Below are positions 22,169 to 45,969 of a stretch of DNA of 64,000 nt, one piece after another. Where the stretch lies: the NCBI RefSeq assembly GCF_029227855.1, contig NZ_CP074358.1; one strand, 5' to 3'. Under the pieces are notes generated by a model. It saw only the letters and a program-made list of their open reading frames with translations, had not been told where the DNA came from and did no database searches. A program made the position numbers and the translations under genes. Numbering within the stretch: the stretch's first letter is position 1; each line of letters opens with the position of its first letter. This stretch comes from Escherichia coli. GTDB taxonomy: Bacteria; Pseudomonadota; Gammaproteobacteria; Enterobacterales; Enterobacteriaceae.

Positions 22169-22909
22169 ATGAACAATGTCATTCCCCTGCAGAATTCACC
22201 AGAACGCGTTTCCCTGTTACCCATTGCGCCGGGGGTGGATTTTGCAACAGCGCTCTCCCTTAGAAGAATGGCCACTTCCACGGGGGCCACACCGGCCTAC
22301 CTGCTGGCCCCGGAAGTGAGTGCCCTTCTCTTCTATATGCCGGATCAGCGTCACCATATGCTGTTCGCCACCCTCTGGAATACCGGAATGCGTATTGGCG
22401 AAGCCCGGATGCTGACGCCGGAATCATTTGACCTGGATGGAGTAAGACCGTTTGTGCGGATCCTGTCCGAAAAAGTGCGTGCGCGACGCGGACGCCCGCC
22501 AAAAGATGAAGTCCGCCTGGTTCCGCTGACGGATATAAGCTATGTCAGGCAGATGGAAAGCTGGATGATCACCACCCGGCCCCGTCGTCGTGAACCATTA
22601 TGGGCCGTGACCGACGAAACCATGCGCAACTGGCTGAAGCAGGCTGTCAGACGGGCCGAAGCTGACGGAGTACACTTTTCGATTCCGGTCACACCACACA
22701 CCTTCCGGCACAGCTATATCATGCACATGCTCTATCACCGCCAGCCCCGGAAAGTCATCCAGGCACTGGCTGGTCACAGGGATCCACGTTCGATGGAGGT
22801 TTATACCAGAGTGTTTGCACTGGATATGGCTGCCACGCTGGCAGTGCCTTTCACAGGTGACGGCCGGGATGCTGCGGAGATCCTGCGTACACTGCCTCCC
22901 CTGAAGTGA
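22169..22909 (+). CDS. int: Tyrosine site-specific recombinase associated with RepFIB (Int)
   Basis: 246-aa ORF with catalytic-domain motifs (HTFRHSY..HML...LAGH....M..Y) and clear paralogy to ResD at 35001..35792. Confidence 0.8.
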
Positions 22910-22914
22910 CGGCA

Positions 22915-23190
22915 TACGCGCTTCCTTATATAAGCTGTGGTCAGCAGAACAGACATAACATAAGCTGGAGCAGGTAGATAAGCTGTAGTGAGTAAACCAT
23001 GTTTTATGAAGGGAGCAATGCCTCAGCATCAGGTTACGGGGTGACTCACGTAAGGGACAGGCAGATGGCAGCTCAGCCACAGGCAGCACTGCAGGAAACT
23101 GAATATAAACAGCAGTGAGCAGACCACTCACTGCACCTGATAATATAAGCTGTAGTCAGTAAAGGAGCACTCTTCACTGACTACAGTTTA
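22915..23190. repeat. RepFIB iterons (ACAGCTTAT-containing repeats), set downstream of repA
   Basis: Multiple copies of ...TATAAGCTGTRGT... read in the sequence. Confidence 0.7.
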
Positions 23191-23193
23191 TGT

Positions 23194-24171
23194 TCAGCGG
23201 GATTTGAAGAGTTTTTCCAGGTCATCCAGTGTGATGCCCAGTTTTTCAAGCAGGGCAAGTTTCTCCGCCATCTCCGGACTGACTTTTTCCGCAGGTGAAG
23301 GTGGCAACGGATTTTCCTTACTCTCATCATTCGGCGCTTTTAACCGGGGACGCCGGTAGTGAATACAGAAGAATTTTGTCCGCCCCCGCTGGATCTCCGT
23401 GTAATCAAGATATCCAATCTCGCGCAACTGCTCCATTGCCCGTCTGACCGTCTGGTTCTGGGAAAATACAGGAGACTTCAGATTGAGGCGTGCACGCAGC
23501 CGCGCCAGCGATATCGGTGCCGGATCCCGGGGCAGGCTCTCTATAAAGGTGTAGAGTGCCTGGGCGGACTCCCGTCGCTTCAGGGCATTAATCGCCTTAA
23601 GCTGGAGAAGGACTTTTCTGTCAAACTGGTACAGTTCAAACAGGCGGGGATCAGCCTGTAACTGAACAATATCCCGCTCAGTATCGTAGTAGGCTGACTG
23701 TACCAGATGGGTGATGTATTCCCGGGTGTGCTTCTCATCGGTACGGGAAAACGAGATCACGGTACCGGCAATGCGCTTCAGGGAAGGGCTGATGCGCTCA
23801 CGCAGCCTGCGGGATGACTGGCTTGAAGGTATACCACACAGTTTTGCAAACTCAACAAAAGGCAGTTCAACTTTGTCACCAATCACGTTATGGCGGGCAA
23901 AGGAATGAATGATCCCCACCCAGGTCTTGAAATCGTTATCCATATCCAGGCGGGGGCCGGTGATCTCAACCTTATCGAATCCCTCAGCACGGGCCAGGGA
24001 AAGACGAGTCAGCTCTTCCGTGGCATCAGTACGTGACAGTGTATTTTTTTTACTGTTCTTCAGTGATTTAAGGGTCGGTACAAAAACGCCCAGACGCATC
24101 AGCGCCACAGGTTGTACGGTGTTGTTATTGTTTGGTGTCAGTGTCACCAGCTCACCGGACGACTTATCCAC
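23194..24171 (-). CDS. repA: RepFIB replication initiator RepA
   Basis: 325-aa ORF recognised as the RepFIB initiator, flanked by iterons on both sides. Confidence 0.85.
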
Positions 24172-24289
24172 CTCGCCGAACAGTTTTTTGATGTCTGAAT
24201 TTTCGTTTTCCAGAAAGCCTCCTGCCTGTGGACAGTAAAAGAATAAACAGAAAATCGTGTGTCAGAACCCCGTCAACTGACTGAAGAAA

Positions 24290-24450
24290 AACCTGCAGTC
24301 TGTATTTAACAACTGAGTCTGGCGTACTGACCATAGTTTATGTCATTAACTTACTTCAGTATATGCATTACTGAATACAGCTTATCATGAACCTGTTACA
24401 GTTTATCCATAACATGCCACAGCTTATGTGAACGTGGTCCCGGCCCATGA
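24290..24450. repeat. RepFIB iterons, set upstream of repA
   Basis: Repeated ACAGTTTAT / ACAGCTTAT motifs. Confidence 0.65.
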
Positions 24451-24492
24451 GTGACAAGGTTTGTAGCGATATGGGGATCTTTAATGGATCCT

Positions 24493-24954
24493 TTATTGAT
24501 CATTCATGGATCTATTTACTGGATCGGGCCTCTGGATATGTGGATAAATCATTCCGGAAAAACAGCATACACTACCGATTATGAAGGCTTCAGGGCGTAC
24601 CTGCTCACTGTGATTACAGATCCATTGCGCTTCCTCGCCGGTTCGCGGGCTTCGCCCGGTCACCGGTCTGCGGCGAGCACCGTTTTTTCTGAAGTCTGTC
24701 TTTACAGGTAATTTTTGACGGAATCTGCCGTACTTCCTGAGCGTACAGTCATATCCGAAATACACTTCATATGTTTGTTTCAACGCCAGAGGCGCATACA
24801 GACTGGCTCCATGAATATCCTGATGACAGGCACTGCTGCGCAGACACCGGTCATGGATGTAACGGAAATACCAGCTGAACCACAGGTCTTCCAGTCGGGG
24901 ACACTGAGTACAGGGCTGGAGCTTGTGGATACGTATCTCTGGATCTTCAAACAC
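24493..24954 (-). CDS. Hypothetical protein with Cys-rich N-terminus (CxxC...CxxxxxCH)
   Basis: 153-aa ORF, third gene of a same-strand cluster; zinc-ribbon-like cysteine spacing. Confidence 0.4.
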   Translation of the reverse strand: MFEDPEIRIHKLQPCTQCPRLEDLWFSWYFRYIHDRCLRSSACHQDIHGASLYAPLALKQTYEVYFGYDCTLRKYGRFRQKLPVKTDFRKNGARRRPVTGRSPRTGEEAQWICNHSEQVRPEAFIIGSVCCFSGMIYPHIQRPDPVNRSMNDQ

Positions 24955-25010
24955 TTTATGGAAGGAAAGGTGTTAACCAGATCCCTTGCCTGCCTGGTTT
25001 ATATCAAGCC

Positions 25011-25652
25011 CTATAGCGACAGGACGGACAGTGTCACCTTCCAGTCAGTAGCTAAACGATCTAAGGTGTTCCTGGACAAACTGCAGGAGCCAACGTCTGA
25101 AATGATAAATAAGCGAGGGAATATCTGGTGCTGGAAGAGTTGAGATGACTGGCACATTGGTATAAATCTTGCCGTCATTCTGATCAGTTTGTAACATTCT
25201 GTAATGATCACCATTGGCTGGCGATTTTTCTGTTCAGTAATGTAATTAACCTTATCTGATGCGCTGGCCACTATTCCATCAGCTGTACTGATGGCAGGCT
25301 CCCTGTTGAGGTCTGCCGCGAGCTGTCCGCCGGACTCAACGGGCTCTGCCACAATCCGGTTATGATAGCCTGGAAACTGATCAAGGGTCAGGTCGATATA
25401 GTCCCTGGCAGGGGCGGCAATGACGTGGCCGTATCTGCCAGGACCATTATCCCACTGCATACCGACAATACAGGAGTACAGGTTGCTGCCGTCTTCCGTC
25501 AGATAATCAGTCAGCGTCTGGCTGGCCAGCTCGCTGCAACCGGCCGGGAAATCCTTCAGGTGATCATACCCGGCGGTGAGAGAAGCCTCACAGGAAGTCA
25601 GCTCCAGAGCATGTCGGAAGGCCTGCAGGCGGGTCCAGGTGTCCGCATTCAC
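25011..25652 (-). CDS. Hypothetical protein
   Basis: 213-aa ORF with GTG start at 25650-25652 overlapping the stop of the upstream small ORF. Confidence 0.45.
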   Translation of the reverse strand: MNADTWTRLQAFRHALELTSCEASLTAGYDHLKDFPAGCSELASQTLTDYLTEDGSNLYSCIVGMQWDNGPGRYGHVIAAPARDYIDLTLDQFPGYHNRIVAEPVESGGQLAADLNREPAISTADGIVASASDKVNYITEQKNRQPMVIITECYKLIRMTARFIPMCQSSQLFQHQIFPRLFIISDVGSCSLSRNTLDRLATDWKVTLSVLSL

Positions 25653-25789
25653 TTTTTCACCTTCCCGTCATGACGGGCCAGGGACTGAAGTTTACGGACG
25701 TCCTCCCGGGATCCTTTCAGCTCAGCTTTCGTATCCAGCAGCTGCGCCGCCAGCGGTCTTTTTCCCGGGAGCCGACTTTCCTGGCACAT
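25649..25789 (-). CDS. Small hypothetical protein (46 aa), translationally coupled to the 213-aa gene
   Basis: ATG at 25787-25789, stop TGA at 25649-25651 overlapping the next start; below the ORF-track size cut-off. Confidence 0.3.
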   Translation of the reverse strand: MCQESRLPGKRPLAAQLLDTKAELKGSREDVRKLQSLARHDGKVKK

Positions 25790-25802
25790 ATTCTTTTCGC
25801 AG

Positions 25803-25825
25803 TTATCCCCAGAATCTGTGGATAA
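25803..25825. promoter_or_regulatory. Inverted pair of DnaA-box-like sequences (TTATCCCCA ... TGTGGATAA)
   Basis: TGTGGATAA matches the DnaA box consensus; located in the RepFIB region just upstream of the small ORF. Confidence 0.55.
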
Positions 25826-26039
25826 CTGTTGCTCCTCTTTTGAGAGAGAAGGCTTTACTCACCGCCTGAATGCGGCAGATATGTCTGGACGATATATCTG
25901 CATACGCCGGTACTGCTTCGTCAGATTGCACGGCAGGTGAATTGCCGGGCTGGTACCATACCATATTTGCGCCGAACCCGTCCGGGGCGGTGCCGATAAC
26001 AGATGTTAAATGATTGGTCGTTTTTACATCTGTAAAAGC

Positions 26040-26074
26040 AACAGGGCCCCATGATTATATCATGGGGCCCTGTT
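26040..26074. terminator. Long perfect hairpin (ACAGGGCCCCATGA-loop-TCATGGGGCCCTGT)
   Basis: 14-bp perfect inverted repeat with a short AT loop at the transition from the RepFIB block into the AT-rich intergenic region. Confidence 0.5.
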
Positions 26075-26691
26075 ACTCTGATTCTTCGCAATAGATTGCT
26101 CTGAATTAGATGCGCCTTCTCCATATAGACTAACAGTTCTATATTATTTTACCATCTTTAAATGTGTAAGAGTTTTCTGTTTTTTATTGGTGTTTATCTG
26201 TATTTTTTGTTTTAGGAACGTTTTTGTAAGAATTATCTTTTATATTTGAGGTGATATCTTATTGTGGTTGTTGTAATAGTTTAGAGTCGTAATAAATATG
26301 ATTGATCGCCACTTTAAATGAAGTTAATCTACTGGAGATGAAGTAACTTCATTAATGCGTCATAAAAATAAAAATTCCTGTTTTGGGAAATATGAATGTG
26401 TCTGTCCCCTCCTTCGGGAGGGTGTTTTTTATCTGGAAACTGGTTTCTGGTTCTGATTTTTCTTTTTGTATTATAGCGAGTTACGCATATTTACCAATCG
26501 ATGTCTGGCAAACAGAGTATGGCGATGGTGTGATTTGTGTTTATTGGTAAAAAAAACACCCCCGTAGTGGGGGTGTTGAAACTTCAACCTATGTACTCAT
26601 TATCCTTGGATGGATGAGTAGCGTGCGATATTGAATCATATTCAGCAGGAATAATAATATTCGCAAAAAAATGGATGTGCAAGGAAATTTT

Positions 26692-26859
26692 TTATATGCT
26701 TTTGTGTGTGGTGGTTAGGTAATCAAGAAGATAAATGATGAAGTGTGCCAGTTCAGGATCAATGTTTCCATGGGAAAGCCATTTATTAATAATATCAATT
26801 AAGTTCGAAAGCTCAGGGAAGATTTGTTCAATGTTTTCCTCTGTCTCCCGCACAGTCAT
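26692..26859 (-). CDS. Small hypothetical protein (about 55 aa)
   Basis: Internal start MTVRETEEN... within track ORF 26692..26907; lies in an otherwise ORF-poor AT-rich region. Confidence 0.3.
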   Translation of the reverse strand: MTVRETEENIEQIFPELSNLIDIINKWLSHGNIDPELAHFIIYLLDYLTTTHKSI

Positions 26860-27245
26860 ATAGCGACGTCTCCTTGGGGATTGAAAACAAAAACAATAAT
26901 ACAACAAGTATGAAACAGAAGGTAGGTGGCAGGGGCGGAACAGGAAAACGCATGAGGGCGCTTCCTGGGGGAGATGCCTGGTATCTTTAGGGTTCAGTTT
27001 TGAGATCGGGAATTTTTGTACATTAAGTGCATTATTTAATCAATTGAAACGCGTAATGGATTGATTTTATCAGCAACTATCGCGTTTAAGTTGTCGATCA
27101 TATTTGAGTTGTCTCATTAAGGTCGAATCCCCTGAAAGCGGCGTATAACGTAGGAGTTCCCCTCTATAGCAATAGGTAAGGCTGTTCAAAAAAGGCTTAC
27201 CGTACAATAATTCGCTATATCCAGACGGCCCCCCTTGTCATACAA

Positions 27246-27400
27246 GCTCGTAAGCGGCCCTGACGGCCTGTCAATGCGGTACTGCCCTGTCGGGACTGCT
27301 CTACCCACATAAGTTTCTACATAGCTTGAAGCTGGATGGGGAGGTATTACGGCTTTAGCCGTAATACTTTCTTCGTCCTCGCAGCGCTGACAGTTTTCAG
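27246..27400 (+). repeat. Unassigned conserved element, copy B (paralogue of 394-585)
   Basis: Identical 23-nt core at 27246-27268, shared blocks after it, and a perfect 10-bp hairpin GTATTACGGC-TTTA-GCCGTAATAC. Confidence 0.5.
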
Positions 27401-27767
27401 GGATCAAATTTAGGTCCGCCATACACTCCGTAAAGACTCTGTCAGTTCACAGGTATTACCTAGTGAAGACGTATCATAAAATGAAAACTGTAGTTGGGTA
27501 GTTGCTCCCCCTCACGGCATGCAGGGGCTGAGGGGGAAAATTTCCTTATCTTGTTGTTGCTATTTCTGGCTTAGTCAGTTTTGAATTTTGCTTCCTAAGC
27601 AATAATCCCCTCACCGCAACAATCGTTCTTCTACACTAATAAGATCCGAAAAAAGGTAAAACCGGAACTTAATGAAATTACGGAGAATTTGACTGATATC
27701 CACTACCCCATTCTTCCGGCGTGCTATCTATACAGGCTGGTACATCTCATTTAGTCCGGAGGTTGTT

Positions 27768-28058
27768 ATGGGCGTCAAAATCACAGGTTTAGACAAAATG
27801 CAGAAACAGCTAAAAGAGGTTGAGAGAGCAACGGAGGCCTTAAACGGAAGTTATGATGTTCGTTTTGATGCTAACGATCCTAGCAGCATTGAGAACGCAA
27901 TTCAGGAAGCCTACTCCATGGTGGACGAACGCGCTTCTGGTTATGCCACTAATCCTATGGTCAGTCCATTAATCGAACACATGAAAGAAAATCTGCGCCA
28001 ACAGATTCTGGACAGTGCAGAACAACAAAGACAGGAGAGCGGACAGGATGGCGATTGA
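27768..28058 (+). CDS. Small hypothetical protein (96 aa), first gene of a coupled pair
   Basis: GGAGG 6 nt upstream of ATG 27768; stop overlaps the start of the TIR-like gene (ATGGCGATTGA). Confidence 0.6.
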   Translation: MGVKITGLDKMQKQLKEVERATEALNGSYDVRFDANDPSSIENAIQEAYSMVDERASGYATNPMVSPLIEHMKENLRQQILDSAEQQRQESGQDGD

Positions 28059-28947
28059 TATCTTTCAGTCACTTAAAAATTGCGTATTCGACCTTCAGCG
28101 CGCTGACGTTCAGAACTATCAGCAACCTCTTAAGCAATTGGCCCGGCTCTTGAACTCAGAGAATCTGCAGTCAGTTAATGCACATCTGACCCGCAATGTT
28201 GAACTTGATACCTTTCTGGCCAGGAGTGAAGATACTGAATCCAGCATGGCTGGTTCCGCTGTTCTACAGTGGCCTGATGAGCCCGCTGATATTTTGGGCC
28301 TGAAGTTGCTGCTGATCGAGAAAATGGCAGACGATAACAATTTTTCCTTTAATTTCTGTCATACATTTTTCTATGATCGAAACATTATTGAATCCATTCG
28401 AAAATTCACGTCGTCATTAGTTGCCCCGTTCGTGCGCGATTACCAGTTGTATGTGGAAAACCAACACGATCCTGAGCCTGCAGTGTTTCGGCCGGTTTCC
28501 CGAAAAATTTTTATTGTTCATGGCCATGATAATGATGCCCTTCAGTCTGTTGCCCGTTTTATATCCCGGATAGGTCTTGAGGAAATCATTCTTTCAGAAC
28601 GTCCTGACGGCTCCAGGACGATTATCGAGAAATTTGAAGCAGAGTCAGGGGATGTCAGTTTTGCCATCGTGCTGATGACGCCCGACGATAGCGGCAGTGC
28701 TCTGGCATCTGAAAGCACACGTCTCCGCGCACGCCAGAATGTCCTGTATGAGCTCGGATATTTCGCCGGGAAGCTTGGACGCGGGAAAGTACTTGTACTC
28801 AGGAAGGGAGATATCGAAATCCCTTCAGATCTTGCCGGGGTTCTCTATACCGAGCTTGATGAGCATGGTGGATGGAAACGCAAACTGCTGAGTGAGCTTG
28901 CGTATGCCGGTGTTCCTTTTGACAAGGATAAAGCATTAAGCGCCTGA
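28048..28947 (+). CDS. Protein with C-terminal TIR-like domain (CAP12/PycTIR-type, predicted nucleotide-binding TIR-like)
   Basis: C-terminal motifs FIVHGHDNDA ... LYELGYFAGKLG...VLVL recalled as hallmarks of the TIR-like family; N-terminal 150 aa unassigned. Confidence 0.65.
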   Translation: MAIDIFQSLKNCVFDLQRADVQNYQQPLKQLARLLNSENLQSVNAHLTRNVELDTFLARSEDTESSMAGSAVLQWPDEPADILGLKLLLIEKMADDNNFSFNFCHTFFYDRNIIESIRKFTSSLVAPFVRDYQLYVENQHDPEPAVFRPVSRKIFIVHGHDNDALQSVARFISRIGLEEIILSERPDGSRTIIEKFEAESGDVSFAIVLMTPDDSGSALASESTRLRARQNVLYELGYFAGKLGRGKVLVLRKGDIEIPSDLAGVLYTELDEHGGWKRKLLSELAYAGVPFDKDKALSA

Positions 28948-28968
28948 TCTCCTTCATTTAGTAAGAAA

Positions 28969-28987
28969 AAGGCCGCTAAGCGGCCTT
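28969..28987. terminator. Bidirectional rho-independent terminator between convergent operons
   Basis: Hairpin AAGGCCGC-TAA-GCGGCCTT flanked by an A-run upstream and a T-run downstream. Confidence 0.7.
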
Positions 28988-28996
28988 AATTTTTGG

Positions 28997-31222
28997 TCAG
29001 TCGTCATTTTCCAGCGCTGTTTTGAGCGCTTCCTGCTCCGGAGTCAGCTCGTTGCCGGACAGCATAACCTTCAACTTCTCTTCGACTGCTGGCCAGTCAT
29101 CAAAGAACGGACTGACCTGGTCACGCGCAATCCGGCGATATGCCCCTCGGTGGGAGCTGAAGACACTGGTCTGTAATCGTATCAACAGGTTAACAAGGCC
29201 TTCATCAGTGGTAGTAACTTCTCTGACCCATTGCTTCACGGTTTCACCTGAACTCATGTCTCTCCAGGCGTAGAGATACCCGAGAAGAGACTTGCGCAGG
29301 AGAAGCTGTTGCTGAAGTTCTGGTTGATTCATACGTTCCGCAAACCTGTCACGCAACCGTTCCGTAATATCGCGACTGAAAAGAGCATCTGAAGGCGAAG
29401 GTACTGCATTCTGAGCAAGTCCATGTTCCCAGATAAGATCCCGCATAAAATCGGCTATCCAGAACGGCGAAGCACCCGTAACGATCAGTTTTTCCATAAG
29501 CGTGATCGTTCTGGTCTCATCAATATCCTGCATATGCTTCAGCAGATGCCGTACAACCTCATTAATGGCCATTTCACGCAGGGAAAACCATGGGTTACGG
29601 ATACTGAAGCGAGTGCTCACCTCATCGGTGTGCTCGAAGAAAAAATGAACCAGTCCTGCGCACTCTTCGAAATTACGTTCTCTTATCAGGCCTGGAGTCA
29701 GTCTGCTCAGTATATGTTCAAACCAGGTTCCGGACAGACTGCCCACACTGTTGATTTTTGAGAGCAGCAATTCAGAAAGCTGCTGCTGTTTTTCCGATAC
29801 GCCAGCCTGTTCAAAAAGCTGTCTGAAGAATTCAGGTGGCAGAACATTCTGTGGTGAGGAGAAGGCAAAATAATATCGCCAGTGCGTCAGGCTGCTGAGT
29901 CGTTTACCGGTCGTCTGGATATGACGAAAATCCTCACTGACGGGCTCAAAAAGATTCAGATATTCATCATTATGTCCACTGATACCTGGGATCCAGTCTG
30001 CAAGTGTCAGAAACGAGTCTGCATTTGATGCCCTGAACGTCTTCATACATCTGATAAGCCCCTCCCGGAAGTCTGCTTTCTCTCCGTCAGAAAGCATACC
30101 CTGACCGGTTTCAATCACGGACCGTTCTGTCAGGTAATGCTCTGTCCAGTCATACAGAGCCGGGTTTGTCACCCGTATAAGCTGAAGCAGGCACAAATCA
30201 GGGAAATAAACAAAATCCCGCATCCCCGGATAAAGAAAAATCAGGGAATTAATGGCCTGATGGATTTCCCGTGGCGTCGAAAGTGCGGCACCATAGGTAT
30301 CAGTCACCGCGATGAGATCCCTTACCATTCCAGAGTCTGGCGGTTGATTATTAATTTGCTGATATAGAGCCTCAGCCCGCTGGCGAAATTCATTACGTAA
30401 ATCAAAGGCTTCAGGTCGGGGTAATTTAAAACTAAGCTGAATGATTTTCTGGAGATAACGGCTGCCATCTTCGATATTCAGCGCATGTTCAACGGCATGA
30501 GTGATAATCTGCCTGTCATAACAGAGAATATGGGTAAAGCGGGGCAGATCGGCTACTGCACGCACAAGCCTGAACACTTCCGCCACCTGGGATGGCTCCA
30601 GTCGGTCCAGATCATCCATGACAACAATGAACTTCAGATCCAGACTCACCAGTTGTCCTGCAATTTCAGCCCGAAGCTTTGTCGTGGTTTTCTGATCAAC
30701 AGCCAGACGGCTGTCTGAAAATACCTTTATTCCGCCTGCTATCCAGTTAATAATGCTGGAAAACTGTCCGATATATTGAACCAGTGGAAGGACGCGCGAT
30801 GAAGTATCCTGAGCATACTCAATCACTTTTTGAGCTTCCGGTGACAACAGATATTTACGCCAGAGCTTTTTGAAGCCCTTCGGGGGATAGCGTATTTCCA
30901 TTTCCTGCTGGATAACCGTGGCAACCGGAAGAAAGAGCGCTTCAACCGGACTGCCGCCACTCAGCCAGGGAGAAATATGCAGCACATGTGTGTGAGCATC
31001 TTTTTTCAGGGCAAGGTTTCTCAGGATCAGATTAAGGAGGCTTGTTTTACCCGATCCCCATGCACCTTCTATTCCGACAACATTTGAAGCCTCCAGAGGA
31101 AGAGTAAGGATGGAACGGGATATATTTTCTGCGATATTACCGAAACCGTATCGATCCTCAGGTACATCTTCAACTGCCGCATCAAGCCCTTTCTGGTTCC
31201 ACAGCTGCCTCAGTATCTTCAT
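28997..31222 (-). CDS. KAP-family P-loop NTPase
   Basis: 741-aa ORF with Walker A GIEGAWGSGKTSLLN and Walker B-like IVVMDDLDR, large helical C-terminal region. Confidence 0.7.
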   Translation of the reverse strand: MKILRQLWNQKGLDAAVEDVPEDRYGFGNIAENISRSILTLPLEASNVVGIEGAWGSGKTSLLNLILRNLALKKDAHTHVLHISPWLSGGSPVEALFLPVATVIQQEMEIRYPPKGFKKLWRKYLLSPEAQKVIEYAQDTSSRVLPLVQYIGQFSSIINWIAGGIKVFSDSRLAVDQKTTTKLRAEIAGQLVSLDLKFIVVMDDLDRLEPSQVAEVFRLVRAVADLPRFTHILCYDRQIITHAVEHALNIEDGSRYLQKIIQLSFKLPRPEAFDLRNEFRQRAEALYQQINNQPPDSGMVRDLIAVTDTYGAALSTPREIHQAINSLIFLYPGMRDFVYFPDLCLLQLIRVTNPALYDWTEHYLTERSVIETGQGMLSDGEKADFREGLIRCMKTFRASNADSFLTLADWIPGISGHNDEYLNLFEPVSEDFRHIQTTGKRLSSLTHWRYYFAFSSPQNVLPPEFFRQLFEQAGVSEKQQQLSELLLSKINSVGSLSGTWFEHILSRLTPGLIRERNFEECAGLVHFFFEHTDEVSTRFSIRNPWFSLREMAINEVVRHLLKHMQDIDETRTITLMEKLIVTGASPFWIADFMRDLIWEHGLAQNAVPSPSDALFSRDITERLRDRFAERMNQPELQQQLLLRKSLLGYLYAWRDMSSGETVKQWVREVTTTDEGLVNLLIRLQTSVFSSHRGAYRRIARDQVSPFFDDWPAVEEKLKVMLSGNELTPEQEALKTALENDD

Positions 31223-31223
31223 A

Positions 31224-32315
31224 TTACAGATCTCCGTACAGGCAGCGCAGCCCGGTCAGGGCCTCCGCCAGCGGGCCTTCTTGACACCGCGTGGCGAGCT
31301 CCCGGACCAGCGTCTCAAAGGCCTCCGCCGGCATAAAAATCCGCAGGCCGTCTATCCCGAAGAAGCCCTCCGGCGTGACGTTTCCGGGCGGGGAGAACAT
31401 CACTCGCTCCCCCTGGTGACCGTGCGTCAGGGCTTCCGGATGCCGGGCATACAGCGTGAACAGGCCCAGCAGTTCGGATAACGCTTCCCAGCCGTACGGC
31501 ACCACGAAGTCCTGGCCGGTGATCAGCAGGTGCAGACGGGGTGTGGTGTACCAGGCCCCCGGGCGTTCTCCGGGGTGCTGGCCGTCAACGCGGATCTCCA
31601 GGCGCAGCGTGCCGGCCTCAATGGTTTCCGTGACGGCAGAAATAACCGGGCGCAGCTCCTGTGCCAGCGTTCTTGCCTGTTCTGTGTTCCAGTCCAGGCC
31701 GCGCAGCATCAACGGGAAAACAGCTTTCAGCCGCGGCAGGGTGAAGATTTCTGCCAGCACCGCGTCCGGCACCTCCGCCAGGCCAAAACAGTCGCTCTCG
31801 AGCGGACGCAGGAGGTGTTCGGCATACATCTGATCCACCACGGGGCGCAGCGCTGCCCGGAAGGCTTCAAACTCTTCCGTCCAGTTTTTCCCGGCCAGGC
31901 GGAAAATCCCCTTCAGGTAGTGACCGTCCACAGGGCGATCGTGCTCCACCTGCCAGGCCAGCAGGTTGCCAGTGATGTCCAGCAGCGTGTCCAGGGCCGG
32001 GAGTGTGGCCAGCCTATTATGCCCGCGCAGGAAGGCCTCCCTGACGTGAACCAGGACAAAGCGCAGTTCGTCGCGGGAGAGCGCTGACGTGCCGAAGGTC
32101 TGGCCCAGAATGATATGCCGGTACAGCTGCCGGACCGTGGCCTCCGGATCGGCAATGAGCTGAAAATACCCGTCACCGGGCGCGACCGTTTTCAGGCCGT
32201 CATCGAGGAAGCGTTCGGCTAGGGCGTTGACCGAAGTATTTTCCCGACCGGCACGCGTTTTCAGCGCCTCGATAAGTTTTTTGTGAAAACGCAGGTTAAG
32301 CTGGCTTAGCATCAT
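31224..32315 (-). CDS. Protein with N-terminal ribbon-helix-helix domain and uncharacterised C-terminal domain
   Basis: N-terminus LSQLNLRFHKKLIEALKTRAGRENTSVNALAERFL fits the RHH pattern; stop is 1 nt from the KAP NTPase start; visibly GC-richer than neighbours. Confidence 0.6.
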   Translation of the reverse strand: MMLSQLNLRFHKKLIEALKTRAGRENTSVNALAERFLDDGLKTVAPGDGYFQLIADPEATVRQLYRHIILGQTFGTSALSRDELRFVLVHVREAFLRGHNRLATLPALDTLLDITGNLLAWQVEHDRPVDGHYLKGIFRLAGKNWTEEFEAFRAALRPVVDQMYAEHLLRPLESDCFGLAEVPDAVLAEIFTLPRLKAVFPLMLRGLDWNTEQARTLAQELRPVISAVTETIEAGTLRLEIRVDGQHPGERPGAWYTTPRLHLLITGQDFVVPYGWEALSELLGLFTLYARHPEALTHGHQGERVMFSPPGNVTPEGFFGIDGLRIFMPAEAFETLVRELATRCQEGPLAEALTGLRCLYGDL

Positions 32316-32342
32316 CGATCCTTTAATGTTTGTTTTGTTCTT

Positions 32343-32359
32343 AATGCTAACCTAGCATT
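32343..32359. promoter_or_regulatory. Candidate operator: perfect inverted repeat AATGCTA-ACC-TAGCATT upstream of the RHH gene
   Basis: 7-bp arms with 3-bp spacer, about 30 nt upstream of the start at 32315. Confidence 0.45.
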
Positions 32360-32997
32360 TTATTATTAGCTATTAATCAGTTTTTTAGTTTTTGAAAATT
32401 GTGATGCTTCTAAAATTACTAAAATTGAGGATTTTAATGCTACAACAATGCCTGCCTCTTCTTATTTCTCCGGAGATCCGAAAACCCCAAGTTCAGGATC
32501 TTCCTCTCCCCCCACACAACGCCACCTCCTGTAAGCACAATATGTGGTGCCGGATTCAGCTACTGATGACACTATATGTTGTGTCATCTCCCTGACCTGT
32601 GATGCGTCGCGCAGGGGCGGAAAACAGCGATATGATGATTTCCTCAGCGTGGTACACTTCCGGAAACCCGTCAATAACAGAAAAATCGGATCTGCCTGAA
32701 ATGGGCATCCGGTAATTTAATGGCGTGGTTATATGCCTGCTTATTATCTGACAGGTGATGATTTATTTAGGGGAAAATAATTCATGCTGACAGAGTGTTG
32801 TGCTGCCATGCGTAATAACTCTGAGCGACTGTTGCTTCCGGTATCAGTTGAGTGAGGATTTTCAGACCACCACGTTTTACTGACCAGTAAAAATTTTTTT
32901 TGCCCGCAAGGCTGACAAGTGACTTCTTTTAGAATTTCGGCATCCACAACCAATGGCAGGAAGCCCGATGCAAAAATTTTTAAGGAGAGCTCTTTTA

Positions 32998-33237
32998 ATG
33001 AAAATTGCTCAGCAATTACTGGAAGCCGTTCTGCAATTTATGAATGCATCTGCAATGACTCAGGTGCTGACGTTGCTATTCCTGGCTCTGATAATACAGG
33101 TACTGAAAACATTAATTACGGCGTGGATAGTAAGAAAACCATCTTCAGGAGAGATGGTTTTAGACCGGAAACCTGACTCTGCCGGGCGTAAGGATCACTG
33201 CAGGCAGCTGTCTCAACAAAGGAAAAAACATGGCTGA
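32998..33237 (+). CDS. Small hydrophobic protein (about 79 aa)
   Basis: RBS AAGGAGAG then ATG 32998; hydrophobic stretch MTQVLTLLFLALIIQVL; stop overlaps the start of the next ORF (ATGGCTGA). Confidence 0.4.
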   Translation: MKIAQQLLEAVLQFMNASAMTQVLTLLFLALIIQVLKTLITAWIVRKPSSGEMVLDRKPDSAGRKDHCRQLSQQRKKHG

Positions 33238-33519
33238 CTGGTTTATTGCAACTGAAGGTGTGAAGGTGGTGAAAGATAGTGCCAGCCTGTGGCCGCAGAT
33301 CATCACGGCGGTTTTGTCTGCCGGTACTGCATTTGGTGGTGTGTGGTACGGGCAGTGGCGGATAACACAGCGAGAGGAGGAAGCTGCAACAGCGAAGCTG
33401 GTCAGCGAACGTCTCTTTATTGCCACGGAGCTGGTTTTTCTGCTGGAGAGGTTTGCGCAGCGTTGTGCTCCAGCAGCAACAGCAACTGTGGAGCACGATC
33501 AGGATGGCAGAGGAGAAGC
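33230..33519 (+). pseudogene. Hypothetical gene truncated at its 3' end by IS3 insertion
   Basis: ORF reads from 33230 straight into the IS3 terminal repeat at 33520; final residues of the track ORF are IS-encoded. Confidence 0.5.
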
Positions 33520-33584
33520 TGATCTTACCCAGCAATAGTGGACACGCGGCTAAGTGAGTAAACTCTCAGTCAGAGGTGACTCAC

Positions 33585-33884
33585 ATGACAAAAACAGTAT
33601 CAACCAGTAAAAAACCCCGTAAACAGCATTCGCCTGAATTTCGCAGTGAAGCCCTGAAGCTTGCTGAACGCATCGGTGTTACTGCCGCAGCCCGTGAACT
33701 CAGCCTGTATGAATCACAACTCTACAACTGGCGCAGTAAACAGCAAAATCAGCAGACGTCTTCTGAACGTGAACTGGAGATGTCTACCGAGATTGCACGT
33801 CTCAAACGCCAGCTGGCAGAACGGGATGAAGAGCTGGCTATCCTCCAAAAGGCCGCGACATACTTCGCGAAGCGCCTGAAATGA
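33585..33884 (+). CDS. insE: IS3 transposase OrfA (InsE)
   Basis: Same protein as copy 1. Confidence 0.9.
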
Positions 33885-34747
33885 AGTATGTCTTTATTGA
33901 AAAACATCAGGCTGAGTTCAGCATCAAAGCAATGTGCCGCGTGCTCCGGGTGGCCCGCAGCGGCTGGTATACGTGGTGTCAGCGGCGGACAAGGATAAGC
34001 ACGCGTCAGCAGTTCCGCCAACACTGCGACAGCGTTGTCCTCGCGGCTTTTACCCGGTCAAAACAGCGTTACGGTGCCCCACGCCTGACGGATGAACTGC
34101 GTGCTCAGGGTTACCCCTTTAACGTAAAAACCGTGGCGGCAAGCCTGCGCCGTCAGGGACTGAGGGCAAAGGCCTCCCGGAAGTTCAGCCCGGTCAGCTA
34201 CCGCGCACACGGCCTGCCTGTGTCAGAAAATCTGTTGGAGCAGGATTTTTACGCCAGTGGCCCGAACCAGAAGTGGGCAGGAGACATCACGTACTTACGT
34301 ACAGATGAAGGCTGGCTGTATCTGGCAGTGGTCATTGACCTGTGGTCACGTGCCGTTATTGGCTGGTCAATGTCGCCACGCATGACGGCGCAACTGGCCT
34401 GCGATGCCCTGCAGATGGCGCTGTGGCGGCGTAAGAGGCCCCGGAACGTTATCGTTCACACGGACCGTGGAGGCCAGTACTGTTCAGCAGATTATCAGGC
34501 GCAACTGAAGCGGCATAATCTGCGTGGAAGTATGAGCGCAAAAGGTTGCTGCTACGATAATGCCTGCGTGGAAAGCTTCTTTCATTCGCTGAAAGTGGAA
34601 TGTATCCATGGAGAACACTTTATCAGCCGGGAAATAATGCGGGCAACGGTGTTTAATTATATCGAATGTGATTACAATCGGTGGCGGCGGCACAGTTGGT
34701 GTGGCGGCCTCAGTCCGGAACAATTTGAAAACAAGAACCTCGCTTAG
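33881..34747 (+). CDS. insF: IS3 transposase OrfB (InsF)
   Basis: 288 aa; differs from copy 1 at two residues. Confidence 0.9.
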
Positions 34748-35000
34748 GCCTGTGTCCATATTACGTGGGTAGGATCAGTTTGCATAAAAACGCAGCTATG
34801 TTGGGAGTAAAAGCACTGCGGTTATCACGAGAACTGAGAATGTTATGTGGCCTCCCTCTGCACGGCCTTTCCGATACACTATCGCCAACGAGGTTGGTAT
34901 TGTTGAAAGCCAGAGGTAAAACACTCCAAAAGGAGTACGAAATGGTAAAGAAGTCTAAAAAGACCGAGCAAGAGATTGAGGATTTCATAAAGGGGACATC

Positions 35001-35792
35001 ATGAGTGGCCCACAATTGCTTTCCCTGCCTGGTTCTTTTTTAACGCCTCCGGCAACATTACCTGTTGCCATTGATTACCCGGCTGCGCTGGCACTACGTC
35101 AGATGGCACTTGTGCAGGGCGAATTACCAAAATATCTGTTGGCGCCGGAGATCAGCGCCCTGCTCCGCTATGTACCGGATCTGCACCGCAAAATGTTGCT
35201 GGCCACCCTGTGGAACACGGGCGCACGTATAAACGAAGCGCTGGCGCTGACGCGGGGAGATTTTTCACTGGCGCCGCCATATCCGTTCGTACAGCTGGCC
35301 ACGCTCAAACAACGGACTGAAAAAGCGACCAGAACGGCAGGCCGTGTCCCTGCTGGCAGTCAGGTGCATCGCCTGGTTCCCCTGTCCGATACACAATACG
35401 TCAGCCAACTGCAGATGATGGTGGCCACGCTGAAAATCCCACTGGAGCGCAGAAACAAACGAACCGGAAGAATGGAGAAGGCGCGCATCTGGGAAATCAC
35501 CGACCGCACAGTTCGCACCTGGCTGAATGAAGCTGTAGAGGCCGCTGCGGCCGACGGCGTGACGTTCTCTGTTCCGGTTACCCCACATACTTTCCGCCAT
35601 TCCTACGCGATGCATATGCTGTATGCTGGTATTCCGCTGAAGGTGCTGCAGAGCCTGATGGGGCACAAGTCGATTAGTTCGACAGATGTGTACACGAAGG
35701 TGTTTGCGCTGGATGTGGCTGCACGGCACCGGGTGCAGTTTTCGATGCCTGAGTCCGATGCTGTCACAATGCTGAAAAACAGACACGCATAA
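35001..35792 (+). CDS. resD: Plasmid multimer-resolution tyrosine recombinase ResD
   Basis: 263-aa ORF recognised as F-plasmid ResD-like; catalytic motifs HTFRHSYAMHML ... LMGH. Confidence 0.85.
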   Translation: MSGPQLLSLPGSFLTPPATLPVAIDYPAALALRQMALVQGELPKYLLAPEISALLRYVPDLHRKMLLATLWNTGARINEALALTRGDFSLAPPYPFVQLATLKQRTEKATRTAGRVPAGSQVHRLVPLSDTQYVSQLQMMVATLKIPLERRNKRTGRMEKARIWEITDRTVRTWLNEAVEAAAADGVTFSVPVTPHTFRHSYAMHMLYAGIPLKVLQSLMGHKSISSTDVYTKVFALDVAARHRVQFSMPESDAVTMLKNRHA

Positions 35793-42100: not shown

Positions 42101-42784
42101 ATGTCCCGTTTTGTCCTCGGTAACTGCATCGATGTTATGGCCCGTATTCCTGATAACGCCATTGATTTCATACTGACTGACCCGCCATATCTCGTCGGTT
42201 TCCGTGACCGTTCCGGGCGCACCATCGCCGGTGATAAAACCGACGAATGGCTGCAACCGGCCTGTAATGAAATGTACCGCGTGCTGAAAAAAGATGCGCT
42301 GATGGTGAGCTTCTATGGCTGGAACCGCGTCGATCGCTTTATGGCCGCCTGGAAAAATGCGGGATTCAGCGTGGTTGGCCACCTGGTATTTACCAAAACC
42401 TACACATCGAAGGCCGCATATGTGGGCTATCGCCACGAATGCGCTTACATCCTGGCAAAAGGGCGTCCGGCGCTGCCTCAGAAGCCATTGCCCGACGTGC
42501 TGGGCTGGAAATATTCAGGCAACCGCCATCACCCGACGGAAAAGCCTGTTACCAGCCTGCAACCACTGATTGAGAGCTTCACACACCCGAACGCGATTGT
42601 GCTGGACCCGTTTGCAGGCAGCGGCTCAACCTGTGTGGCTGCCCTTCAGTCCAGACGCCGGTATATCGGTATCGAGCTGCTTGAACAGTATCACCGTGCC
42701 GGACAGCAACGACTGGCCGCCGTGCAACGGGCCATGCAGCAGGGGGCCGCGAATAATAACTGGTTTGAACCGGAGGCTGCGTAA
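42101..42784 (+). CDS. Orphan DNA methyltransferase (N6-adenine/N4-cytosine type, DPPY motif)
   Basis: Motifs DPPY and FAGSGST; no adjacent restriction enzyme gene. Confidence 0.75.
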   Translation: MSRFVLGNCIDVMARIPDNAIDFILTDPPYLVGFRDRSGRTIAGDKTDEWLQPACNEMYRVLKKDALMVSFYGWNRVDRFMAAWKNAGFSVVGHLVFTKTYTSKAAYVGYRHECAYILAKGRPALPQKPLPDVLGWKYSGNRHHPTEKPVTSLQPLIESFTHPNAIVLDPFAGSGSTCVAALQSRRRYIGIELLEQYHRAGQQRLAAVQRAMQQGAANNNWFEPEAA

Positions 42785-43018
42785 ATGAACTATGCCGGAC
42801 ACGAAAACCTTCGTGCTGAAGTGGCGGAGGTGGCCAATGCCATGTGTGACCTTCGGGCCAGGCTGAACGATATGGAGCATCGCTGTCGCTTTGATTCCGA
42901 TGTGCTCGTTGAACGCCTGGCACGCCAGACGCTGTATCGCGCCAATCGCCTGTTCATGGAGGCATATACCGAAATTCTTGAACTGGATGCGTGCTTCAAA
43001 GATTAAGGGGGAGACGAA

Positions 43019-43453
43019 ATGTACGGAACATGCAAAACGCTCTGCCGGGAGCTGGCAGCAAAGTATCCGGGAGACACGCCGCTGATGCTGCTTATCTGGT
43101 CCCCGGAAGAGATTCAGGCCCTCGCTGACGGAATGGATATTTCCCTGTCCGATCATGAAATCAGGACTGTCCTGGCGCGCCTGGAGGACATCCCGGAAGA
43201 CCAGCGGACTGAATCCGGTATTTCTTCCGCCGCTGCGATGGAGATTATCAGCAACGTGAGCGAAAACCGCCAGGTGACCGTCTCTGCTGAACTGCTGGCG
43301 TCCCTGATTCAGACTGCTGAACAGGCACTGTGGAAACGTGAATGGGCCGCCCGGGATCATGGCCTCGCCGTCCCGGAATGCGTCACCCGCCGTCAGGCGG
43401 TGATTAATCAGGCCCGCACCCTGCTGAAAAACAACACACACGAAAACGACTGA
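43019..43453 (+). CDS. Hypothetical leading-region protein (paralogue of 45171..45593)
   Basis: 144 aa; shares [14 protein letters not shown] / [10 protein letters not shown] blocks with the paralogue. Confidence 0.55.
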
Positions 43454-43503
43454 TGTTATCGCCGCCTGCCCTGCGGGCGGCGATACAGGGAGAACGCTTA
43501 ATC

Positions 43504-44070
43504 ATGAACGAAAACTGCACGCTGAACGCACTGATTTGTCGTCACGCCCGCAACCTGCTGCTGGCGCAGGGCTGGCCGGAGGAGACGGATGTTGATCAGC
43601 GAGATCCACAGAACTATCCGGGCTGGATCAGCATTTACGTGCGGCTGGATGCGCCCCGGCTGGCGACGTTACTCGTCAACCGCCACGATTGCGTACTGCC
43701 GCCGGTCCTGGCTTCCGCCATGCAAAAACTGACCGGAACCGGGGCGGAGCTGGTACTGTCCGGCAGTCAGTGGCAGTCGCTGCCGGTACTTCCGGCAGAC
43801 GGAACGCAGGTGTCTTTCCCGTATGCCGGCGAATGGCTGATCGAAGACGAAATCAGGGCTGTACTTGCGGCGGTGCGCGATGCGGTACGCAGTGTCAGTT
43901 GCCGGGTGGCAGAAGATGCACGGCGTATCCGGGCGGCGCTGACCACCACCGGTCAGACGTTGCTGACCCGCCAGACGCGCCGCTTTCGTCTGGTTGTGAA
44001 GGAAAGCGATTACCCCTGCTGGCTTGATGAAGATGACGAAAATCTGCCGTGGTGCTCGATGCCATTCTGA
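43504..44070 (+). CDS. Hypothetical leading-region protein
   Basis: ATG at 43504 (MNENCTL...), about 188 aa. Confidence 0.45.
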
Positions 44071-44698
44071 ACCGTGGCGCACGTTTTTCCTCTGTGGAAA
44101 TGTACCTGGTCTGTGAGTGTGTGGAGCATATCCTGGCCAGTGGTCTGGTCTGTGATGTGCTGCGTATACCAGATGAACCGTCCCGTCGCTGGTTTGACCG
44201 GGATATTCTGCGGGAGGTTGTTCTGGAGGCACGGGATGAAATCCGCAGCATGGCGGATGCACTGGCGAAAATCCGGAAATGATGACGCTGGCGGGGAAAA
44301 ATCTCCGCCTTTTCCAGCCGGTCCTCGGACAGAGCACAAAGGAAGTCGCCGCCGGGTCCGCTTTACCCGGCCATGCAGGGCATGGCCTTGTGGTTTTTCA
44401 GTTATGTGGCCTCAGCGTCGTGTGCGGGCTGTGCCGTGCCTCCATCTTAGCCGGGCTGGCGTTGATGCAAGGGTACGCTTCGCCGCTGCGGTCACCCGGT
44501 CCCTCCTTCCCGTCTGCCGTGATTTTCCGGTCGTTCACCCGCTCAGATTTCGCGGTCTCACCCTGCAACTCCCGTCAGCCGTGTGCGTCAGGCTGCGGCT
44601 TCCCTTGCGCCCCTGCATCCCCGCCTGTTCGCCCGGCTTTTATGGAGGCACGGCACCGCCCGGTGTCGCGGAATATGTGAACAACAGAGGAAAACATC

Positions 44699-45124
44699 AT
44701 GCAATATGCGAAACCTGTCACTCTGAATGTTGAAGAGTGCGACCGTCTCTCCTTTCTGCCGTATCTGTTTGGCAACGATTTTCTGTATGCCGAGGCGTAT
44801 GTGTACGCGCTGGCGCAAAAAATGATGCCGGAATATCAGGGAGGCTTCTGGCACTTCATCCGCCTGCCGGACGGTGGCGGTTACATGATGCCGGATGGCG
44901 ACCGTTTCCACATGGTGAACGGTGCAAACTGGTTTGACCGTACCGTGAGTGCTGATGCCGCAGGCATCATCCTGACCTCCCTTGTGATTAACCGCCAGTT
45001 GTGGCTGTACCACGACAGCGGGGATGCAGGACTGACCCAGCTTTACCGGATGCGCGATGCGCAGTTGTGGCGTCACATCGAATTTCACCCCGAATGCAAC
45101 GCGATTTACGCGGCTCTGGACTGA
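44699..45124 (+). CDS. Antirestriction protein, ArdB/KlcA/YfjX-like
   Basis: 141-aa ORF with WHF..LP.GGG.MMPD...[20 protein letters not shown] block recalled from this family. Confidence 0.65.
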
Positions 45125-45170
45125 TTAACGGACGGGGCGGCAATGCCGCCCCTGTAAAGGAGACGAGAAC

Positions 45171-45593
45171 ATGTACTGTACTGTTAAAGAAATTATCCGC
45201 GAAGTGCTGGATACAGACGTGCCGGACAGTGAATGCGTTTTTGCCGTAGTGCTGACCCGTGGGGATGTGCGTCACATAGCCCAGGACTGGAGTCTGACAG
45301 ACGATGAGCTGGAAACCGTCATGCAGCGGCTGGACGATGCCTTTGAATATGGTGCGGATGTCAGCGTTGTTCACGGCGTTGTTCGTGAACTGATGGAAGA
45401 AAAGCGCGCCAGCCGTCAGGTGACAGTCCCGGCGGTGATGCTGGAAAAAGTGATGGCGCTGGCAGGCAGTGAAATGAAGCGCCTGTATGCCGTCGGGAGT
45501 GAGAACGGGGGCGACGGTGACGCATTCGTCAGGGAGGAACGCGAAGCAATGGACGTTGTGTTACAGGCGCTGGACGGGGAGACGATGTCATGA
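45171..45593 (+). CDS. Hypothetical leading-region protein (paralogue of 43019..43453)
   Basis: 140 aa, clear paralogy. Confidence 0.55.
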   Translation: MYCTVKEIIREVLDTDVPDSECVFAVVLTRGDVRHIAQDWSLTDDELETVMQRLDDAFEYGADVSVVHGVVRELMEEKRASRQVTVPAVMLEKVMALAGSEMKRLYAVGSENGGDGDAFVREEREAMDVVLQALDGETMS

Positions 45594-45969
45594 ATATCAG
45601 CACAGAAACCCGCGAAATTCTGCGTAATTACAGGGCCGTGATTAATGCGCGGCGTCGTGAAATGGGGCAGAAACCGCTCACCACCGCGCAGATTGTTGAT
45701 GAAATCTGCGATTTTGTGGCGAATCAGCAGGCGGTTTTCCTGGGCGGTCACTACATCTTACAGGGTAGCAGAAACAGGTGATACAGGGGCAGGCGGTGGA
45801 GGCCGCCTGTCAGTCCGCGCGAAAACCCCTGGCAGGCTGACGCCTGCCGGAAGGGAAGCGGACCACGCTGGCGCGTCGCCCGTTACCCTTCCCGTCTGTG
45901 ATGTGTCTGACTCAGGAGTGTTTCTTTCTTATGTTATGGAACTGTTCCTGATGTTGTTGTTCCTTTATC

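Follow-up and report, generated by a model that had tools for sequence, protein, structure and literature searches.

The KAP-family NTPase operon of an F-like Escherichia coli plasmid is very probably the pifC–pifA operon of F

Two closely spaced minus-strand genes in a 64,000-nucleotide (nt) stretch of Escherichia coli DNA (NCBI RefSeq assembly GCF_029227855.1, contig NZ_CP074358.1; the whole stretch is referred to here as the window) raise the question of whether a ribbon-helix-helix (RHH) protein coupled to a KAP-family nucleoside triphosphatase (NTPase) makes up a defence system that has yet to be described. A first-pass annotation, made from the letters alone, had proposed exactly this, calling the pair a candidate undescribed module and knowing of no described system in which the two proteins occur together. 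We conclude that the locus is the pifC–pifA operon (phage inhibition by F) on an F-like IncFIA/FIB plasmid, a reading to which we give a probability of about 95%, and that the pair, as judged from its sequence, is a known system rather than an undescribed defence module. Among the loci of the F plasmid, pif is a textbook case.

The identification is carried by near-identity to F. When positions 28900-32500 were compared with PLSDB by megablast, 1297 plasmids were matched, the F plasmid (NC_002483.1) among them, and the region proved 99.9% identical in DNA to positions 42348-45948 of that record over 3601 nt (100% of the query), within a longer stretch, window positions 22899-32666, that is collinear with F at 99.6%. 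PifC of the window is the same as PifC of F (WP_000952217.1) in 362 of 362 residues, and PifA, encoded at the same genomic position, shares 740 of its 741 residues with the F protein (WP_000698737.1), the sole change being E530D. The annotation of NC_002483.1 names the upstream gene 'transcriptional repressor PifC' and the downstream gene 'P-loop NTPase fold protein', and record CP076044.1 labels the NTPase gene 'phage T7 exclusion protein'. Profile searches with the proteins of the window, which the first-pass annotation had itself recommended, place the pair in this same characterised system, the NTPase matching the dedicated PADLOC model for PifA (PDLC02361) at E 2.9e-290 and 963 bits, with residues 8-740 on profile positions 2-718 of 720. 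Given this model and the identity to F, the claim of novelty has to be withdrawn; no contradiction to the pif identification was found among the results obtained.

The KAP family has PifA as its bacterial founder, and the protein encoded here matches the Pfam KAP_NTPase entry that had been expected for it (PF07693, E 6.3e-43, residues 28-331). The Walker A motif GIEGAWGSGKTSLLN begins at residue 50 (GAWGSGKT, 53-60) and the Walker B-like motif IVVMDDLDR at residue 199 (VVMDDLDR, 200-207), both as previously read. No transmembrane helix is predicted in PifA, the highest 19-residue Kyte-Doolittle mean being 1.27 and no 19-mer exceeding 1.3. KAP stands for Kidins220/ARMS and PifA, and the absence from PifA of the family's usual transmembrane helices is a documented exception (PMC13001434), so its membership of the family is unaffected. 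A single-sequence search of the Protein Data Bank (PDB) with PifA returned nothing meaningful, neither PifA nor PifC has an NCBIfam model above cut-off, and RefSeq labels PifA merely 'P-loop NTPase fold protein' in most records. In published work PifA of F is one of the classical E. coli abortive-infection systems and acts against T7; sensitivity hinges on the phage protein gp1.2, and gp10 also plays a part (PMC8594841). The protein reportedly depolarises the membrane and makes nucleotides leak (PMC13001434).

The elements of the operon and its borders are as follows, with positions numbered along the window.

28997-31222, minus strand: pifA, a 741-residue P-loop NTPase of the KAP family, known from F for excluding phage T7 by abortive infection.
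31224-32312, minus strand: pifC, the 362-residue transcriptional repressor PifC (alias RepC, protein C), with an alternative in-frame ATG at 32315 (363 residues).
31232-31235, minus strand: GGAG, read from the sequence as the Shine-Dalgarno site of pifA, within the conserved ...LYGDL codons of pifC.
32316-32460, minus strand: AT-rich leader and promoter region of pifC, collinear with F.
32343-32359, no strand assigned: 7-3-7 palindrome AATGCTA-ACC-TAGCATT, 31 nt upstream of the pifC start, the putative PifC operator (pifO core).
32434-32442, no strand assigned: second copy of TTAATGCTA, forming direct repeat D10, 93 nt upstream of the copy in the palindrome.
28969-28987, no strand assigned: bidirectional intrinsic terminator AAGGCCGC-TAA-GCGGCCTT, found by a scan of both strands, which ends the pif operon and a convergent TIR-domain gene.

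The physical layout described in the first-pass annotation is borne out: the two minus-strand open reading frames (28997-31222, 741 residues; 31224-32315, 363 residues), the 1-nt junction with GGAG inside the end of the upstream gene, the exact 7-3-7 inverted repeat and the downstream bidirectional terminator are all present. The length of the upstream product calls for an amendment, as the 363-residue frame exists and the RefSeq start is its second ATG at 32312, which gives 362 residues and has the better spacing, 6 nt after AAGGA. The pifC stop (TAA, 31224-31226) and the pifA start (ATG, 31220-31222) are separated by a single nucleotide, and a gap of 0-1 nt is retained at the junction of pifC with its partner in homologous loci L002, L003, L004, L009 and L016; from this gap and the Shine-Dalgarno site inside the 3' end of pifC, we read pifA as translationally coupled to pifC. 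The terminator is a G+C-rich hairpin with T-runs on both strands that scored in both orientations. The RHH gene had also been noted as the richer in G+C, and pifC does reach 63% (76% at third codon positions), where pifA has 48% and the window as a whole 49%; the RHH-encoding first 150 nt of pifC stand at just 55%, which suggests that the body of the regulator is mosaic or foreign in origin.

The assignment of the PifC N-terminus depends on several lines of evidence. Pfam finds DUF6364 alone in the 363-residue frame, below threshold and at residues 2-44, with no domain above threshold, and PADLOC has no model for PifC. The family is small, with 142 representatives, many of them fragments, in a scan of 1.84 billion representative proteins. 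A family profile built from 23 full-length members matched Arc, Mnt and CopG-family structures in the PDB at residues 4-48 (E 0.012-0.02), and its hhalign alignment to Arc residues 6-44 (probability 80%, E 1.4e-5) puts Q4, N6 and R8 of PifC on the Q-x-N-x-R base-reading strand of Arc. Scanned singly against Pfam, 14 of the 23 members gave DUF6364 at E<=0.1, and RHH_1 appeared in one. The AlphaFold2 model of PifC (predicted local distance difference test 87.4, predicted template modelling score 0.81) has helices at residues 11-23 and 28-41, preceded by an N-terminal strand segment that lacks structure, which is what an RHH modelled as a monomer should show. A single-sequence PDB search with PifC gave nothing meaningful, Arc and Mnt being reached by the family profile only; a search with the 58 N-terminal residues matched designed repeat proteins, which were judged spurious. 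Individually these lines are modest, and since profile, hhalign, Pfam scans of the members and modelled helices agree, they collectively support an Arc-like RHH, in keeping with the RHH-like start that had been noticed in the sequence. For the whole protein the predicted architecture has an Arc-like RHH at the N-terminus, a helical domain in the middle and a Whirly/PUR-like α/β domain at the C-terminus.

Where such a protein would bind is suggested by comparison of the regions upstream of pifC. Miller and Malamy reportedly defined pifO genetically as the cis site of autoregulation, and we infer that the palindrome is this PifC binding site. It occurs as a single exact copy in the window, where a search allowing up to three mismatches found 3 sites against 3.4 expected, a chance level that reveals no further PifC sites. 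A blastn search for distant relatives of the upstream region was uninformative on pifC, dominated as it was by a backbone segment of more than 5000 IncF plasmids, and tblastn with PifC was used instead. The core TGCTA-N3-TAGCA lies at -43 to -47 from the start codon in five other pifC-homologue loci, namely Klebsiella plasmids (92, 86 and 65% PifC identity), a metagenomic contig (39%) and a Cronobacter plasmid (35%), and the sequence flanking it in these loci is not alignable. Homologues without this core mostly have ATGACAT-N-ATGTCAT (or GACATCATGTC) further upstream. The two palindromes are paired with different versions of the RHH β-strand, SQL-N-LRF with TGCTA...TAGCA and SQL-T-LRF with ATGACAT...ATGTCAT (L004, L007, L009, L016), a covariation that provides the strongest evidence available for the palindrome as the PifC site. 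The second TTAATGCTA copy might perhaps serve as an auxiliary operator half-site, GTAGCA at that position being partly conserved in alignment A1 of pifC upstream regions.

The neighbourhoods of PifC homologues were sampled at 13 loci. As had been suggested for checking, the pair does recur in diverged loci: PifC–PifA pairs with a stop/start gap of 0-1 nt are found at 92, 86, 42 and 36-38% PifC identity, and in the loci tested (L002, L009, L016) the PADLOC model identifies the partner as full-length PifA (E <1e-260). Other homologues have a 202-residue or a 284-residue protein of unknown kind downstream, or no evident partner. In locus L004 (Salmonella Infantis pESI-like plasmid pN55391, 1272-5460) an 81%-identical PifC is joined by a 1-nt junction to a 289-residue PDC-S64/DUF3644-like protein, the pair occupying 3501-5460, and lies directly downstream of a CBASS cyclase and four-transmembrane effector pair. 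In locus L005 (Klebsiella pneumoniae pP35B, 434-6782) the 65%-identical pifC is apparently a pseudogene with an in-frame stop and no annotated coding sequence, its PifA partner is split into two coding sequences, and the anti-phage gene ppl stands immediately upstream on the opposite strand. The pairing of PifC with PifA is thus, across these loci, conserved without being obligatory. The coupled partners that appear interchangeable are given in a single entry.

No coordinates: PifA KAP NTPase; PDC-S64-like protein (pESI-like Salmonella plasmids); 202-residue and 284-residue proteins.

Because its partners range from PifA to a PDC-S64-like protein, to others and to none, PifC looks like a module able to carry different cargo, behaviour that fits its independent activity in fertility inhibition. 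PifC inhibits the conjugation of rival IncP and IncW plasmids by targeting type IV coupling proteins (PMC5696584), through what have been described as 'unknown mechanisms' (PMC8744291). Work by Miller, Lanka and Malamy (1985, cited in PMC5696584) gives pifC as the 'pif operon regulatory gene' through which the F factor inhibits the transfer of RP4. A tentative extension, which we think rather less likely to be right than wrong, is that the PifC family is a portable regulator or sensor, composed of an Arc-like RHH of switchable specificity (N or T), a helical domain and a Whirly/PUR-like domain, and coupled to interchangeable defence effectors at a conserved ...YGD(L/V)-stop-ATG junction. In this reading, single-stranded DNA under transfer, or coupling proteins, might be what the Whirly/PUR-like domain recognises. 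If this were true, the family would connect the inhibition of rival plasmids' fertility with control over abortive-infection effectors. Our searches turned up no earlier description of the domain architecture of PifC or of cargo swapping, and this comparative detail (RHH and operator covariation, predicted Whirly/PUR-like domain, cargo swapping) is mildly new, the rest being known.

On the far side of the terminator, convergent with pifA, a plus-strand gene (28048-28947) encodes a 299-residue protein with a CAP12/Pycsar-type TIR domain (PF10137, E 8e-37) that matches the PADLOC candidate system PDC-S35 (E 2e-65), and a 96-residue open reading frame (27768-28058, plus strand) lies just upstream of it. 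In F itself this TIR gene also adjoins pifA, labelled 'nucleotide-binding protein', so that the classical F plasmid carries a TIR-type defence candidate next to pif. At the other end the window diverges from F at 32666: F has the ccdA and ccdB genes 580 nt upstream of pifC, and here positions 32667-35792 hold other short open reading frames, an IS3-family element (orfA 33576-33884, orfB 33881-34747) and a ResD-like site-specific integrase (35001-35792). Beyond 32666 the sequence resembles pAA-type IncFIA/FIB plasmids (e.g. NZ_PP261916.1) rather than F. The pif operon adjoins the RepFIA/oriV1 backbone. PifC has also gone under the name RepC, as a protein that replication from oriV1 requires. 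The non-coding segment 32460-32680, upstream of the pif promoter, has no annotated feature and matches more than 5000 IncF-type plasmids, most of them without pifC; two repeats lie in it, an imperfect direct one of 27 nt (32523-32549, 32557-32583) and an inverted one of 8 nt, GATGACAC/GTGTCATC (32565-32588), and the segment may belong to the oriV1/rfsF backbone region.

A working scheme for the operon can be put together from these observations and the literature. The Arc-like RHH of PifC would bind TGCTA-N3-TAGCA just upstream of pifC and so hold the pif operon at a low, autoregulated level, and PifA, a KAP NTPase without transmembrane helices, would be translated through coupling to pifC. 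According to published work PifA would then respond to the products of T7 genes 1.2 and 10 and abort the infection by depolarising the membrane, causing permeability lesions and letting nucleotides leak out, and PifC would in addition block the conjugation of co-resident IncP/IncW plasmids by way of type IV coupling proteins. The identity with F, the family memberships, the RHH assignment, the conservation and covariation of the operator and the conserved coupling come from the present analysis; the literature supplies the exclusion of T7, the role of pifC as a regulator and the inhibition of fertility. The inference of an autoregulated abortive-infection or anti-plasmid NTPase module thus agrees in kind of function with what is published on pif, its novelty aside.

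Several points weigh against this account. A perfect inverted repeat with 7-nt arms arises in 253 of 2000 shuffles (13%) of the 350-nt upstream region, so the palindrome draws its significance from being kept in diverged homologues and not from improbability alone; the binding of PifC to it is derived from comparison; and a sigma-70 consensus scan of 28800-32800 found no canonical site. The T7 exclusion phenotype belongs to the F protein, from which PifA of the window departs by E530D. The phage range of PifA is also very narrow, with only T7 and its close relative Bas65 affected in the BASEL panel, and the authors of that study suggest that the primary role of RexAB and PifA is possibly not defence (PMC8594841).

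This last suggestion leads to the alternative that survives best, in which the operon serves mainly in competition between plasmids and in the control of replication, T7 exclusion being a by-product. The published action of PifC on IncP and IncW transfer (PMC5696584), the narrow range and open question of purpose raised with the BASEL collection (PMC8594841) and the position beside the RepFIA/oriV1 backbone all speak for it. Set against this, PifA orthologues have stayed with PifC on plasmids and chromosomes that have diverged, a PDC-S64-like defence candidate is a further partner of PifC-like genes, and the locus adjoins the TIR-domain PDC-S35 candidate, which is typical defence-island behaviour; we regard this alternative as unlikely, at perhaps one chance in a handful, and it would leave the identity of the locus unchanged. 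Less probable still is a toxin–antitoxin-like arrangement, in which PifC would both repress the operon and neutralise the NTPase through its large C-terminal region until phage infection freed PifA. The architecture would fit, and the BASEL authors obtained no functional ectopic pifA construct (PMC8594841), yet PifC homologues occur without partners or with unrelated ones. By report of Schmitt and Molineux, pifA alone is said to be sufficient for exclusion, which also counts against such an arrangement.

The two remaining alternatives can be set aside with near certainty. That the genes form a previously undescribed two-gene defence module is made understandable by the missing Pfam domain and PADLOC model of PifC and the generic RefSeq name of PifA, sparse labels that would leave the pair unplaceable for a reader without databases, but it is refuted by the near-identity to the pif genes of F, the PADLOC PifA model and a literature that is decades old. 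Membership of Qat or another multi-gene KAP system, where the NTPase would work with partner enzymes, was tried and rejected, the matches to QatA being weak and partial (PADLOC E 1.3e-14 and 52 bits, against 963 bits for the PifA model; NCBIfam 39.4 bits against a cut-off of 600) and the neighbours being pifC and the convergent TIR gene, with no QatB-, QatC- or QatD-like gene adjacent.

As a discovery, the locus carries no weight, the operon having long been known. Its use lies in calibration, raw sequence having been enough to infer the right kind of function, and the side results on RHH and operator covariation, on the predicted Whirly/PUR-like domain and on interchangeable partners offer cheap, testable handles on how PifC inhibits coupling proteins, as well as on the mode of action and primary function of PifA.

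Among known systems, the other bacterial KAP NTPases of defence islands, QatA and PDC-S20, have the P-loop core with Walker A and B motifs in common with PifA, and match it weakly and only in part, a C-terminal region of about 400 residues being specific to the PifA model. RexAB of phage lambda is described alongside PifA as a system of narrow phage range that detects particular phage proteins and kills by depolarising the membrane (PMC8594841), although the proteins are unrelated and the likeness is one of description, not sequence. Arc and Mnt of phage P22 resemble PifC in their binding module, the N-terminal 40 residues of the PifC family aligning to Arc 6-44 including the Q-x-N-x-R face of the β-strand, and in having a short palindromic operator, putative at pifC, beside the regulated gene; PifC differs in its roughly 320 further residues, which include the predicted helical and Whirly/PUR-like domains, and in its second published activity, fertility inhibition via coupling proteins (PMC5696584). 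Closest of all is the pif operon of F (NC_002483.1, 42445-45760), which is alike in junction, palindrome, terminator and convergent TIR neighbour and differs by the E530D change in PifA and by carrying ccdAB upstream of pifC, where the window beyond 32666 has other open reading frames and the IS3-family element, as in the pAA plasmid NZ_PP261916.1.

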